Source: Promethearchaeota archaeon
Lineage (GTDB): Archaea; Asgardarchaeota; Lokiarchaeia; Sigyniarchaeales; SOKP01
Length of the DNA stretch: 17,797 bases
Direction: 5' to 3'
Assembly (NCBI GenBank): GCA_016839765.1
Contig: JAEOTP010000095.1
Coordinates: 1-17,797, forward strand
In this document: piece by piece, positions 1,989 through 16,014 of the stretch
Position numbering within the stretch: the first letter of the stretch is position 1
Layout of the letters: each line of letters begins with the position of its first letter
The notes under the pieces: generated by a model
The model's database searches: none
Told to the model about the DNA's origin: nothing
The model's input: the letters and a program-made list of their open reading frames with translations, nothing else
Position numbers and translations under genes: made by a program

Positions 1989-2510
1989 TTATTCGGTAAA
2001 TGCTATATTTAACATCTTTTTTGTTAGGATTTCGAATAATTTTCCTACATTTTCACCAGTTTTGCTGGAACATTCGATAAAATCATCCAAATCCATAGAT
2101 CTAGCGACTCTTAAACCCTCTTCATAAGGTACTTCTCGAGATACTTCTAAATCTGCCTTACTACCGCTTAGAATAATTGGAAATTGCTTATTGGTTCCAT
2201 TCATAATCGATAACCAATCATAAACATGAGAAAGGGAGGCGTAACTAGTGATATCATACAACAAAATCCCCCCCATAGCACCACGAATATATTTAGGAAA
2301 GATAAACCGAAATCTTTCTTCGCCAGCAAAATCCCATACCATTAATTTGACTTGTATACTATCAATCGCAAGGTTTTTAGTGTCAAAATCAACTCCGATA
2401 GTCATTTGAGTGTCTGGGATAAATACGCCGGACATATATCTCTTTAATAAAGTGGTTTTACCACTACCTGCATCTCCAAAAATAACCACTTTAAAAATAG
2501 CATCATACAT
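1989..2510 (-). CDS. Rab-like small GTPase (Ras superfamily, Asgard type)
   Basis: G1 GDAGSGKT, G2/RabF1 TIGVDF, RabF2-like KLMVW, G3 WDFAGEE, RabF3-like RFRFIF, RabF4-like YIRGA, RabF5-like LLYDIT, G4 variant SKAD, G5 CSSK. No C-terminal Cys prenylation motif. Confidence 0.93.
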   Translation of the reverse strand: MYDAIFKVVIFGDAGSGKTTLLKRYMSGVFIPDTQMTIGVDFDTKNLAIDSIQVKLMVWDFAGEERFRFIFPKYIRGAMGGILLYDITSYASLSHVYDWLSIMNGTNKQFPIILSGSKADLEVSREVPYEEGLRVARSMDLDDFIECSSKTGENVGKLFEILTKKMLNIAFTE

Positions 2511-10577: not shown

Positions 10578-11732
10578 TTATTTATAGTATTCTAATGAAT
10601 CTACAATAAATTTACAAAGCTTTTTTAATACTGATACATCTACATTTTCTAATGAGTCATATTCAGAATGCATAAATTTACCCACCTCAGAGCTTCCATA
10701 TTCAATCAGGTTAAAATTTTTTTGAAATAGATATATACCATCTGTATGGATACCTAGAGGGAGTGGGTTGATAAATGTTTTAAAATTATACTCTTTTGCT
10801 TTATTTATAAGGAAATTATAGTATCCCAAATTATTTTTAAGATTGTTTTTAGAAGCTACGATGTTAACACTTTTTCCTAAAGATTCGAAGTTGTTAACGA
10901 TTGATTTAATTGGATTAATAACACTTATAGTTTTATAAAAGCTACGAATCCCCATAGTCCCTGATTCTTCTGCTCCTGTAAATACAAACCAAAGATTATA
11001 ATCTCTTAATTCATTTTTCTTAATAGAAAAGTAATTTAATAACTCTAAAACACATGCTATCCCAGAGGCATTATCAACAACACCCTTAGATTTATTATTA
11101 GTAGTGTTTGAGCTGAGGATTACTGTTGTTATCAAACTTATTGTCAAAGGAATAATTCCGATTAAAGTAAACAGAAAATAAAACGAGGATAAAACAAGTC
11201 TTAAAACTAAAATTATAAGATTAGCAAATAAGGAAATTGTCCAAAAAAATATACTTAAACCTCTTGTTCTTGCTGTAATCCTTTGACCTTTTGAATCTAG
11301 ATGGGCCATGAAAAAAATGTTTATTTTTTCACTTTCTTGACTAGATTTTAAATTCTCTGAAGTTAACGGGCTTAGCTTTACATAAAGATTTTGAGATTCA
11401 AAAATTTTTCCGATTTTGATATTTTCAGGTTTCCTAGTTATTATAAAAAATGGTATGAATATTAAAATAGTTAAAAACAAACTAACTAACACAAATATGA
11501 GACTTAAATTTAAATAAAATGTAAAAAATACCCAAAACACAAGGGGAAATGCTATTTTAGGGTATATTCTTGAATAGAAGGTCGAAAATTTAAAAGTTTG
11601 AATTTCTGGATTTAAATTCATCTCCTCAATTTTTTCTTTGGCAATGTTAAATGCTTTTTTTTCATATAGAGTCCCTGATAATCTTGGAAATGCAAATAGT
11701 TCCAAGTTTTCCCTTATTCTATTTTCATCCAT
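10578..11732 (-). CDS. Membrane-embedded M28-family Zn metallopeptidase
   Basis: PRLSGT, AHLDS, GVVDNASG, FTGAEESG, HTDG and HSEYDS Zn-ligand motifs, with two inserted pairs of hydrophobic helices. Confidence 0.88.
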   Translation of the reverse strand: MDENRIRENLELFAFPRLSGTLYEKKAFNIAKEKIEEMNLNPEIQTFKFSTFYSRIYPKIAFPLVFWVFFTFYLNLSLIFVLVSLFLTILIFIPFFIITRKPENIKIGKIFESQNLYVKLSPLTSENLKSSQESEKINIFFMAHLDSKGQRITARTRGLSIFFWTISLFANLIILVLRLVLSSFYFLFTLIGIIPLTISLITTVILSSNTTNNKSKGVVDNASGIACVLELLNYFSIKKNELRDYNLWFVFTGAEESGTMGIRSFYKTISVINPIKSIVNNFESLGKSVNIVASKNNLKNNLGYYNFLINKAKEYNFKTFINPLPLGIHTDGIYLFQKNFNLIEYGSSEVGKFMHSEYDSLENVDVSVLKKLCKFIVDSLEYYK

Positions 11733-11999: not shown

Positions 12000-12007
12000 A
12001 AAAAAAA
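12000..12007 (-). terminator. Oligo-T (T8) archaeal terminator candidate after the Lys-rich small gene
   Basis: A8 on the plus strand, which is T8 on the minus strand, 26 nt past the TAA stop of 12034-12135. Confidence 0.5.
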
Positions 12008-12033
12008 GGGTGTTAACAATGAATTAATGATTA

Positions 12034-12135
12034 TTATTTCTTACCTGCTGGCTTCTTTTTAGGAGCTGGCTTCTTTTTAGGAGCTGATTTTTTTTTAGGA
12101 GCTGGCTTCTTTTTAGGAGCTTTCTTCTTTGCCAT
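12034..12135 (-). CDS. 33-aa Lys/Pro/Ala repeat peptide MAKKKAPKKKPAPKKKSAPKKKPAPKKKPAGKK (histone H1/tail-like, putative nucleic-acid-binding small protein)
   Basis: Hand translation: ATG at 12135, TAA at 12034-12036, a second in-frame TAA immediately after, a purine-rich leader GGGAAAAGGGAAGTAAT before the ATG, and an in-frame 18-nt repeat with synonymous AAG/AAA variation. Confidence 0.8.
   Translation of the reverse strand: MAKKKAPKKKPAPKKKSAPKKKPAPKKKPAGKK
12049..12120 (-). repeat. 4 x 18-bp coding tandem repeat (GCTCCTAAAAAGAAGCCA = APKKKP)
   Basis: Units 1, 3 and 4 are identical. Unit 2 is GCTCCTAAAAAAAAATCA (APKKKS). There are no spacers. Confidence 0.95.
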
Positions 12136-12439
12136 ATTACTTCCCTTTTCCCTTGTTCTTTTTACTTTTTTTAAAAATTTTTAAAAATATGCTTAAAATA
12201 TACACATAACTTACATTTAAATATTTAGATTTTGAATGTGTGGTCAAATCACTACTTTACCTTAATTTGTCCCAAATAGCAATGTGAGCTACAACATTGA
12301 TAGAAGTAATATTTTTCATTTTATCGATTTTCCTTTCTCATATAACATATTGAATTGGTGCTTTAATATTTTTAATATATCTCTCACGGACTGTTAAAAG
12401 AAATATATAATTAATAATTTATTTTGTCTTTAGTTTTAA

Positions 12440-13702
12440 TTATAACAGAGAAATCATATCTTTAATGGCTCTACTAACTAAATAGAGCTGTATATTTCGA
12501 GCACCTCCTATTATTTCCTGAACTTTAGCAACTTCTAATGCTTTATCAATCCGTAGATTATCAGTAAAAGCAATTCCCCCACATAATTGTTGTGTTTCAT
12601 AAGATATTTTATGAGCTAAATGTGATGCAAGGTATTTTGTACCTGAACTAAAGGCAGCATTATATTTAATGAATTTCTGTTGATCAAAATGTTTCCGCTC
12701 AATAATTTTGTTATACTCAGAGGCTGATTTAAATCCTAATTCTGTAGCTGCCATAAGTTCAGTAAAATTCTGGGTTTGAGGAAGCGAAACTCCTTGAAAA
12801 TCATATAGAGGTCGACCAAATTGAATTCTCAAGTTTGTATATATAAGACCGGTAACTGCCGTTAACCATGCAATCCCTAAACTAGACCCAATAATTGAAC
12901 ACCTTTCAGCTACAAGCCCAGAAAATAAATTTTTATAACCTTGACCTTTATCTCCAAGAATATTTTCTCTGGGGATTTTTACAGAATTAAAAAGAGTCTG
13001 TCCAATTTGTACACGTGGAACTGATTGAATGCCAAGTCTATTAGTTATCAATCCTTCATGTCCTCTTTCTGCAATTGCTTGATACATTGTTCCTCGTGGA
13101 TCTGAGACATCTGATACGCCATATACTATAAAATAATCTGCTACTGGACCATTAGTCGTATATAATTTTTCTCCAGTAAAAAGTAAATGATCTCCTTTAT
13201 CAATAACCTTCGTTTCCATATTAACAGCATCAGAACCATGCTTTCTCTCAGTGATACAAATGCAACCTATCTTTTTACCTTTCATAATCTGATTTAAAAT
13301 TTCAGAAATTCTATCTCCTCTGCCAAATTGAAACAACGGATTGGCAAATATTACTCCAGTCACCACTCTAGCTAAATCTAATTCGGGATCAATGATCGAT
13401 GTTGCCATCGCTAAAAGCATTTCATACCGCATATTGTACCTTTCAAAATCTCCATAAGGATTTAATCTCTGGATATAGTTTTTCTTCCCCAGGATTGGAA
13501 AAAGATCATAAACTTCTTCACTTAAATTTATTTTAGGTTCAATTTTCTTGAGTAGGAAACGCTCCAATTCCTCCAGAAATTCCCGTTCTTCCTCTGTTAT
13601 AAGAGGGATAATAAAATTATTAAAAATTTTGTAAATGTTTTCTGTTCTTAATTTCTCTTTTATCTGTTCATCTAAAATATCTACACCCGTAATCATTTTC
13701 AT
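12440..13702 (-). CDS. Acyl-CoA dehydrogenase family protein
   Basis: ITERKHGSDA, GEKLYTTNG, RIQFGRPL..FQGV, QLCGGIAF and EIIGGARNIQ motifs. GGTGA RBS upstream. Confidence 0.92.
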   Translation of the reverse strand: MKMITGVDILDEQIKEKLRTENIYKIFNNFIIPLITEEEREFLEELERFLLKKIEPKINLSEEVYDLFPILGKKNYIQRLNPYGDFERYNMRYEMLLAMATSIIDPELDLARVVTGVIFANPLFQFGRGDRISEILNQIMKGKKIGCICITERKHGSDAVNMETKVIDKGDHLLFTGEKLYTTNGPVADYFIVYGVSDVSDPRGTMYQAIAERGHEGLITNRLGIQSVPRVQIGQTLFNSVKIPRENILGDKGQGYKNLFSGLVAERCSIIGSSLGIAWLTAVTGLIYTNLRIQFGRPLYDFQGVSLPQTQNFTELMAATELGFKSASEYNKIIERKHFDQQKFIKYNAAFSSGTKYLASHLAHKISYETQQLCGGIAFTDNLRIDKALEVAKVQEIIGGARNIQLYLVSRAIKDMISLL

Positions 13703-13898: not shown

Positions 13899-15236
13899 AT
13901 GGTTAGACCTAAGGTAGTTTTACCCGAAAATGGTATCCATGGCAATGAACTCATAAAAGAAATGGAATTAATTAGTAAAGATGACGTAGAATGGAAAGAT
14001 GGGAAGGTTTGGAGTTTAGTATATCATGCTTCGGATGAGCATACAGAACTACTTAAGAAAAGTTATAACATGTTTTTCTCAAAGAACGCATTAAGCCCAC
14101 TTGCTTTTCCAAGTCTAAAAAAATTTGAAACTGAAGTAGTTTCGATGGCTATTGACTTATTTGGAGGAGATAAAAAATGCTGTGGGAGTATGACTTCTGG
14201 AGGAACTGAAAGTATTGTGATGGCTGTAAAAACTTATAGAGATTGGGCAAGGGATAAGTTTCCCGATATTAGAAATCCTGAAATGTTATTACCTAGCTCC
14301 GCTCATCCAGCATTTTATAAAGGAGCAGATTATTTTGATGTAAAAGCAGTAATTGTACCAGTGGATAAAAATACTCATCGAGCAGATGTAAAAGCTATGG
14401 AAAAAGCAATAAATAAGAATACAATATTAATAGTAGGTTCTGCATGCGATTTCCCCAGAGGTGTTGTGGATCCAATCCCCGAATTAGCAGCCATAGCTCA
14501 AGATCGTGGAATAGGAATGCATGTTGATTCATGTCTCGGAGGATTTATGTTGCCTTTTGTTAAAAAACTCGGGTATGAAGTTCCTGAGTTTGATTTTTCT
14601 GTTCCAGGGGTAACATCCATGTCTGCTGATGTCCATAAATATGGATATGGGGCAAAGGGCGCATCAACAATCCTCTATCGTAGTGATAAAATATGGAAAT
14701 ACCAATTTTCTGTGTATACAGATTGGTCAGGTGGCGTGTATATTTCAACCACTATGCGAGGAACACGTCCTGGGGGGGCAATGGCTGCAGCTTGGGTTGC
14801 TATGAAAACTCTAGGAATAAATGGTTATTTGAAATTAGCAAAAATCGTTATGGATGCTACAAAGAAATTAATTGAAGGAATAAATCGATTCCCAGAGCTA
14901 TACATTATTGGGAAACCCGTGATGAGCGTTTTCTCTTTTACTTCTGATGATATTAATATTTTTCAACTAGGAGATGTATTAGATGAGAAAGGATGGCATT
15001 TAGATAGAATACAGTTCCCATCGGCATTACACATGATGGTAAATCCTCACCATGCTGATATTGTTGATGATTTCTTAACAGATCTCAGAGACGCAGTCAA
15101 TGAAGTTCGTAAAAATCCTGAAAAAGTTTCTGAGGGTGAAGCTGCGATGTATGGTATGATTGCAAGTTTACCTGATCGTACTAAAGTCAAGAACTTTATT
15201 ATTAATTTCCTAAAAACTCAATATAAAATTAATTAG
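13899..15236 (+). CDS. Sphingosine-1-phosphate lyase-like PLP-dependent enzyme (group II decarboxylase fold)
   Basis: TSGGTESI, SAHPAFYK, HVDSCLGGF, SADVHKYG (PLP Lys), GTRPGG and C-terminal AAMYG. No N-terminal transmembrane anchor. Confidence 0.88.
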   Translation: MVRPKVVLPENGIHGNELIKEMELISKDDVEWKDGKVWSLVYHASDEHTELLKKSYNMFFSKNALSPLAFPSLKKFETEVVSMAIDLFGGDKKCCGSMTSGGTESIVMAVKTYRDWARDKFPDIRNPEMLLPSSAHPAFYKGADYFDVKAVIVPVDKNTHRADVKAMEKAINKNTILIVGSACDFPRGVVDPIPELAAIAQDRGIGMHVDSCLGGFMLPFVKKLGYEVPEFDFSVPGVTSMSADVHKYGYGAKGASTILYRSDKIWKYQFSVYTDWSGGVYISTTMRGTRPGGAMAAAWVAMKTLGINGYLKLAKIVMDATKKLIEGINRFPELYIIGKPVMSVFSFTSDDINIFQLGDVLDEKGWHLDRIQFPSALHMMVNPHHADIVDDFLTDLRDAVNEVRKNPEKVSEGEAAMYGMIASLPDRTKVKNFIINFLKTQYKIN

Positions 15237-15261: not shown

Positions 15262-16014
15262 TTATTCTATCTTCTTCATTATTAAATTATGTATTTCCTT
15301 AATATTTTGCTGAAGATCAAAAGGATCAAATTGCACGCCTAACCTAGTTTTTAAAATTGGAGGTATATGATCTGGATTACTAAAAATAGGAATTATTGGT
15401 TTTCCCATAATATCGGCTGCAGTCCACTCCTTTTCAACAGGTTCAGATGATAATGCATTTGGAGAACAAAATAAAAGCATTATATCACATCTACCAAGGT
15501 TATCATTCATATATTTGATAATATTATCTTTCATATCTTCTTGCCAATAAAGAACATTAGCTATTTTTTCACGTTTTGTTAAATTTTCTGCAACCTCTCT
15601 GATTTTAAATATATCAGCATCTTTTGTAGCATAACTTACAAATACTAAAATATCTTCTTTTGCCCCTTTTACCCTATCAGCGTAATAAATGGACTGCTTT
15701 TGAATTTTTTTAATTTCTACTTTTTTCTTAATTAAATTTTGAATTATCCTCTTTTGAACTTTTTTTTTTAACGTTCGCTCTATAATTTCGGTTGGAAGAA
15801 TAACAATCACTAAAATAGCACTGTAAATAAAGATATTAGTATATTCCTGCTCAATAACGCTTAAAATTATAAAAATAATTAAAGTAATTCCTAATAATAA
15901 TCCAATAATTTCTGATAGAACCCTAATAGCTTTTTCTGTTGAACTGTAATGCCGAAATTTTACTTTAAAATCTTTAACGTTAACATGGTTCGAATTGTTA
16001 GTCCTATCTGACAT
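15262..16014 (-). CDS. Two-TM membrane protein with a C-terminal TIR domain
   Basis: Two hydrophobic helices (about aa 32-77), a Lys-rich linker, then the TIR motifs VFVSYATKD, LLFCSPNALSSEPVEKEW (conserved Glu) and IIPIF. Confidence 0.88.
   Translation of the reverse strand: MSDRTNNSNHVNVKDFKVKFRHYSSTEKAIRVLSEIIGLLLGITLIIFIILSVIEQEYTNIFIYSAILVIVILPTEIIERTLKKKVQKRIIQNLIKKKVEIKKIQKQSIYYADRVKGAKEDILVFVSYATKDADIFKIREVAENLTKREKIANVLYWQEDMKDNIIKYMNDNLGRCDIMLLFCSPNALSSEPVEKEWTAADIMGKPIIPIFSNPDHIPPILKTRLGVQFDPFDLQQNIKEIHNLIMKKIE

Follow-up and report, generated by a model that had tools for sequence, protein, structure and literature searches.

The window, as we call the whole stretch of 17,797 nt analysed here, stems from a genome of the Lokiarchaeia (Promethearchaeia), and the Asgard host that an earlier note on this DNA had thought probable is thus confirmed. 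The host genome (G000) comprises 3.3 Mb with 29.7% GC and is 96% complete. A micro-gene, P0001, lies alone in a gap between the genes for an M28 peptidase and an acyl-CoA dehydrogenase (ACAD), all three on the minus strand; the gap, put at about 700 bp before, measures 707 bp. The features of the locus are listed below, with the evidence in brackets.

10578..11732, minus strand: M28 peptidase, downstream neighbour, partnership not conserved (adjacent in G143 alone)
12000..12007, minus strand: T8 tract 27 nt past the stop, probable archaeal terminator (sequence; T run of at least 6 in 45/46 orthologues)
12031..12033, minus strand: second in-frame TAA (sequence)
12034..12135, minus strand: Lys/Ala/Pro micro-protein gene P0001, 33 aa (open reading frame, translation, orthologues in 45 other genomes)
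12140..12154, minus strand: purine-rich leader, weakly Shine-Dalgarno-like (anti-Shine-Dalgarno of the host genome's own 16S)
12216..12223, minus strand: TATA box TATTTAAA, 81 nt upstream of the ATG (modal spacing across orthologues, 81 nt)
12224..12233, minus strand: A-rich stretch upstream of the TATA box, presumably BRE-like in its role (sequence and family consensus)
12440..13702, minus strand: ACAD, upstream neighbour, partnership not conserved (adjacent in G019 alone)

The Lys-rich repeat frame of 33 aa with its double TAA, as read in the earlier note, was borne out by translation and codon inspection on the minus strand, and the TATA-like octamer, the purine-rich leader and the T8 tract that it had named were all recovered at the positions above. 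From its ATG, P0001 runs through about five repeat units of 18 nt in which AAA and AAG codons are mixed. The product has 17 Lys, no acidic or aromatic residues and a pI of 11.2; after removal of Met, 32 residues (3.45 kDa) are left. No other ORF of the 3.3-Mb host genome has such a composition, and five shuffled genomes contained none. TATA box, leader and T-tract occur together at only 3 of the 736 intergenic ORFs of 25-40 codons in the host genome, P0001 included. The leader is a weak Shine-Dalgarno sequence with a duplex energy of -5.3 kcal/mol, which is equalled by 23% of long genes. It is kept in the eight closest genomes, most other family members having a stronger AGGAG-type leader.

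Further genes were noted in the window. A Rab/Ras-like small GTPase (1989-2510, minus strand) is a typical Asgard signature, and in G018 and G134 the micro-gene is flanked by homologues of it. Divergent from ACAD, a PLP-dependent decarboxylase family gene (13899-15236, plus strand), which we take to be sphingosine-1-phosphate-lyase-like, is also found near the micro-gene in G013, G019, G022 and G143. A membrane-anchored TIR_2 domain protein is encoded at 15262-16014 on the minus strand (E 5.7e-14).

We scanned 400 Asgard genomes with a start pattern, using the reversed pattern as control. Matches were found in 128 of the 400 genomes, 98 of them from the window's own family, compared with a single one for the reversed control. 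On translation, the loci could be sorted into tailed histones, micro-ORFs standing alone and, as a small third group, unrelated proteins. The stand-alone micro-ORFs amount to 47 copies of 27-38 aa, present in 46 of the 135 genomes of the window's Lokiarchaeia family and composed of 50% Lys, 28% Ala and 17% Pro. Among family genomes with a completeness of at least 90%, 38 of 89 are carriers; in the two large genera of the family, the ratios are 15/42 and 29/54. The single-contig genome G088 belongs to the carriers. The same micro-gene was seen on ten metagenome contigs, and no viral contig with the peptide was found. With an independent internal-repeat pattern, none of the new loci that were examined proved to be another stand-alone gene. 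A loose hydrophilic-codon pattern was uninformative and was dropped.

In the neighbouring family, that of the cultured Loki, three patterns applied to the complete genomes (including G042) revealed no stand-alone gene of this kind. They gave tailed histones and long proteins, plus one Lys/Thr-rich 25-mer in G030; the histone tail of G042 matches the L. ossiferum peptide of Cho et al. (see below). The NCBI titles Odin-, Hermod- and Hodarchaeota (L206, L211, L214) do not show a wider range, since these genomes fall in the window's own Lokiarchaeia genus and the records are mislabelled. Shorter, different Lys-rich stand-alone ORFs of 20-25 aa (L250-L253, L075, L228) exist in the Thorarchaeia and one other family. 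Those of the Thorarchaeia (L250-L253) lie immediately behind a gene with an acidic Asp/Trp tail at its end, with conserved synteny, and might constitute an acidic/basic pair. Two details within the window's family may be mentioned. At L040 (G115), two diverged micro-genes of 37 and 31 aa stand in tandem, both equipped with a TATA box and leader of their own. L092 (G055) and L180 (G122) have the same micro-gene and flanks in different assigned genera, probably as a result of bin contamination.

On a tree of the locus of the tailed histone HLoB (see below), presence of the micro-gene is clustered, with 16 changes versus 27.6 after shuffling and at least 12 forced gains or losses. This clustering agrees with a gene that is inherited and either repeatedly lost or missed in assembly. 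Given its patchy occurrence, the micro-gene is not essential, and some of the absences may represent failed assembly. The genes adjoining it differ from clade to clade, with no conserved chromatin neighbour among them. The earlier note had considered synteny with ACAD and the M28 peptidase, which holds for two close relatives (G019, G143) and not for the rest. The variable neighbours indicate an independent unit. Together with the conserved signals described below, they agree with the separate transcription unit that had been proposed.

The coding frame has been under evident constraint. Beyond the searched start, the Lys codons of the 47 copies are AAA (351) and AAG (157), and non-Lys single-step variants of AAA are confined to three AGA (GAA 0, AAT/AAC 0); Ile codons never occur. 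Comparison of the thirteen 37-mers yielded 587 synonymous versus 185 non-synonymous codon differences, counted over pairs that are not independent. Copies differ in length by whole codons, show third-position-only variation and have a fixed ATG. Pro residues are mainly spaced by 6 (94 cases) or 5 (75 cases) residues. In at least five genomes the repeat continues past a stop codon that has replaced a Lys codon. Such stops never lie before residue 28 (rough P of about 0.007), which points to a loose C-terminus and a minimum length that is kept. Pyrrolysine or read-through at these premature stops was considered and discarded: most are TAA, and the remnant is decayed in the form seen in G124 and four metagenome contigs.

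The expression signals are equally well conserved. A TATA box was detected in 45/47 copies, a purine leader in 44/47 (35/47 by a strict GGAG/GAGG/GGTG definition) and a T-tract in 45/46. Very similar values were obtained for the genes of HLoB (83/86, 78/86 and 83/85, respectively). For random small ORFs, the background is 17%, 8% and 23%, and for long genes 31%, 15% and 35%. Judged from codons and signals, selection acts on the encoded protein, and the micro-gene is a real and conserved gene, in all probability separately transcribed and translated. It was overlooked by annotation, as the earlier note had claimed: gene calling missed it, yet it is conserved in the family.

The premature stops, and the lack of a protein record for any of the 11 peptides that we looked up (see below), would also suit a locus that is no protein gene at all, be it an 18-nt repeat of a non-coding or selfish nature or a histone gene decaying to a stump. 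The third-position variation, whole-codon length changes, fixed ATG and conserved promoter and terminator speak against both forms, and Rfam gave no credible match for the micro-gene. The stump can be assessed by comparison with the histones themselves.

The host genome encodes five histones, one of them with a Lys/Ala/Pro tail (C59:44716-44952). This tailed histone is of the class HLoB in the sense of Cho et al. (bioRxiv 10.64898/2026.07.02.735847) and is carried by about 85 genomes. Going by sequence, the N-terminal tail of HLoB is the closest look-alike of the peptide, a relation absent from the earlier note, and the two coexist in the same genomes including the host. HLoB is reported to be abundant, to localise to the nucleoid and to be Lys-methylated on its tail; a similar tail peptide of L. 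ossiferum is methylated at K9, LoHAT2 acetylates synthetic HLoB tail peptides, and no reader domains were found (10.64898/2026.07.02.735847). A word search of the main text of that study gave no mention of a stand-alone tail peptide, nor did we find one described for Lokiarchaeia in the literature.

Peptide and HLoB tail both start with MAKKK followed by Ala/Pro-Lys units and have up to 10 identical residues within one genome (G015, G077, G134). Their genes have the same single-gene layout, with a TATA box about 80-90 nt upstream, a Shine-Dalgarno sequence and a T-tract. In contrast to HLoB, the peptide has no histone fold and is a pure repeat of 27-38 aa, the HLoB tail having a median of 13 aa in the family. 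Its locus is another one, patchily occupied and with variable neighbours, whereas that of HLoB is conserved (HIT protein/TrmB-like neighbours). No histone-fold remnant was found downstream of the repeat in any frame, and HLoB is intact at its own locus in micro-gene-bearing genomes. Moreover, an 8-nt leader precedes all five host histone genes and 73 of 78 HLoB genes, but none of the 47 micro-genes. We therefore rejected a broken or truncated histone gene, and consider it very improbable that the locus is a histone stump or a non-coding repeat.

Recent duplication of, or conversion from, HLoB was not supported: third-position identity with the histone of the same genome is 60% (77/128), versus 54% across genomes and 60% between micro-genes. 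Compensation for short histone tails also failed as an explanation, as the HLoB tail has a median of 13 residues with and 13 without the peptide within the family. An ancient split or convergence is possible for the relation between the two sequences. As to the histone leader, GTGGAGGA is common to all five histone genes of the host (C51, C57, C59, C67, C80) and to a 378-aa actin-like ORF (C64); it precedes only 8 of the 4015 ORFs of this genome and may mark its most strongly translated genes. Short histones of 67-73 aa, of the face-to-face type by eye, have MAKK Lys/Ala/Pro tails as well (L071, L116, L249).

The similarity raises the question if the peptide, as a multivalent copy of the HLoB tail in trans, offers the methylases, acetylases and sirtuins of the tail a substrate, decoy or buffer, or competes for tail-binding surfaces. 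The motif KKAPAKK is present in one to five copies in 34/47 members, as in most HLoB tails of the family; the tail modifications reported by Cho et al. (10.64898/2026.07.02.735847) and four sirtuin genes in the host genome would suit such a role. However, P0001 itself has no KKAPAKK, only PAPKK twice, and motifs of peptide and tail do not co-vary consistently (G079, G096, G104, G110). In addition, the same motif occurs in the tails of RNA polymerase subunit A' (RpoA'), and Cho et al. found no reader domains. We regard this role as improbable.

Similar repeats are not restricted to histones. In Lokiarchaeia, RpoA' and a gelsolin-like protein have tails of Lys/Ala/Pro repeats as well, so the composition does not point to chromatin alone. 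RpoA' of several family genomes (L043, L053, L066, L293, L298, L300, L302, L305) has a C-terminal Lys/Ala/Pro repeat and, behind it, a conserved module of small size that bears a KAIWRGK-type motif; a 44-aa ORF of G075 (L121) combines a histone-like tail with this module. The second protein (355-400 aa; L039, L044, L050, L064, L276) has an N-terminus that is gelsolin-like by eye and ends in Lys/Ala/Pro repeats of variable length. A scan of 185,579 genomes uncovered a P0001-type start in three bacteria, among them a stand-alone peptide of 49 aa in Ignavibacteria (L209:3844-3993) that is 82% identical to P0001. Another one is a stand-alone peptide of 17 aa with the same repeat in Ca. Thermosaccharophagus (L210), and the third (L208) runs off its contig; the peptides of 49 and 17 aa have Shine-Dalgarno leaders. 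At the level of sequence, the Lys/Ala/Pro tail is thus a design that recurs in unrelated proteins and lineages.

Exact look-up of P0001 and ten look-alikes in a collection of 15 billion proteins returned no record, which may reflect database filters, as the bacterial peptide of 49 aa is missing too. Homology searches (alignment query; phmmer against 1.84 billion representatives; PDB; Pfam) gave no matches because the peptide is short and of low complexity. The nearest named ESM cluster is HC2 (0.89, 17% of members), which can serve as a lead only. An H1-like structural cluster (bioRxiv 10.64898/2026.10.28.762692) was set aside as well, being mentioned there in passing and with no tie to the peptide established.

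What the peptide might do is suggested by its charge pattern and by analogy. If translated, it very likely binds nucleic acid, and given such binding, DNA or chromatin would rather probably be the main target. The 32-residue chain with a charge of about +17 is expected to be disordered, considering its composition. Clusters of two to three Lys every 5-6 residues, separated by Ala-Pro spacers, would contact the phosphate backbone without sequence specificity and so neutralise and bridge nucleoid DNA next to the five histones. Each molecule would offset the charge of about 8 bp and could connect segments between the stacks of histones. Its role would be accessory and tunable by dose and length; a control by the enzymes that modify the lysines of HLoB tails is speculative. 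With tail-only H1 or Hc2 as models, we give an even chance to non-specific binding and condensation of DNA beside histones. A more specific version, a free-standing, multiplied histone tail acting in trans as a hypernucleosome linker and written and erased by the HLoB-tail enzymes, appears doubtful. If true, it would be an archaeal counterpart, in function, of linker histone H1 that annotation and tryptic proteomics have so far been unable to see.

The charge pattern cannot separate DNA from RNA. The peptide could hence be a polycation that binds RNA in general or associates with ribosomes (as an RNA chaperone, a damper of translation or a polyamine substitute) instead of a chromatin protein, and the absence of chromatin genes from its neighbourhood would agree with this. 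Hc2 binds RNA better than Hc1 does and represses translation (PMC2848022). On the other hand, a peptide of 27-38 aa with a freely truncated C-terminus and an often absent gene is unlike a structural ribosomal protein, and a motif common to peptide and HLoB tail also argues against RNA as the target. The peptide is Lys-only, whereas eL41, bS22 and other small basic proteins of the ribosome are rich in Arg. An RNA-directed role seems unlikely to us.

A further option is binding to some other polyanion or to a surface, such as polyphosphate granules, acidic proteins or membranes, in the manner of AlgP/PhaF tails, or activity as an antimicrobial-type cationic peptide. The KPAA repeats of AlgP link polyphosphate granules to the nucleoid (PMC11894788), and Loki proteins contain many acidic tracts. 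Yet neither PPK1 nor PPK2 was found in the 96%-complete host genome, and the translated P0001 has no targeting domain, signal peptide or hydrophobic face. We deem such targets improbable, too. With DNA condensation as the favoured reading, a conserved 3.5-kDa polycation that is all tail and has histone-like promoter signals would be an instance of a detached tail put to use in an archaeon that has histones. Missing from protein databases and shredded by trypsin, it is of the sort that surveys would overlook.

The peptide resembles canonical linker histone H1 (PF00538) in the K/A/P-rich composition of the H1 C-terminal domain. The winged-helix globular domain PF00538 had no Pfam match in the peptide and none in the host genome at E<=0.1, and [ST]PxK phosphorylation motifs are absent from all 47 members. 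The relevance to the origin of H1 and of eukaryotic histone tails that the earlier note saw here is not supported: the gene is patchy and restricted to one Lokiarchaeia family, an Ignavibacteria peptide is 82% identical, similar repeats sit on RpoA' and the gelsolin-like protein, and no H1 globular domain was found in the genome. Reviews find no homology of Asgard and eukaryotic histone tails (PMC10919886, 10.1101/2021.11.30.470311). The histones of Lokiarchaeia underwent a diversification of their own, apart from the lineage that is closest to eukaryotes (PMC10919886). The narrow range and the bacterial look-alikes lead us to favour convergence over common descent with eukaryotic H1. The peptide would thus inform how linker-type proteins arise, repeatedly and convergently, more than the actual ancestry of H1.

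Closer parallels are provided by proteins that are tail only. The H1 of kinetoplastids is a single Lys/Ala/Pro domain without a globular domain, has its own gene and coexists with true histones; in T. brucei, it compacts chromatin, and its AAPKK repeats resemble the units of the peptide (PMC3486875). Unlike T. brucei H1 (at least 73 aa), the peptide is at most about half as long; it also differs from kinetoplastid H1 in its archaeal hypernucleosome context and in lacking the [ST]PxK motif, and homology is not demonstrable for such sequence. With Chlamydia Hc2 (PF07382), Bordetella BpH1 and Pseudomonas AlgP's C-terminal domain it shares Lys clusters set at even distances in repeats of 5-6 residues, a length that varies in frame, and the absence of acidic residues. 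Those proteins are 165-237 aa long or fused to a folded domain, whereas the peptide has 27-38 aa and no HC2 Pfam match; their hosts are without archaeal-type histones. BpH1, like the micro-gene in its patchy family, is dispensable (PMC2848022, PMC11894788). By its sequence, the peptide is therefore neither a canonical H1 nor Hc2 nor HLoB, though it resembles the tail-only H1-like polycations. It is of a known kind in this respect, and new in being very small, archaeal and coexistent with histones that bear the same tail.
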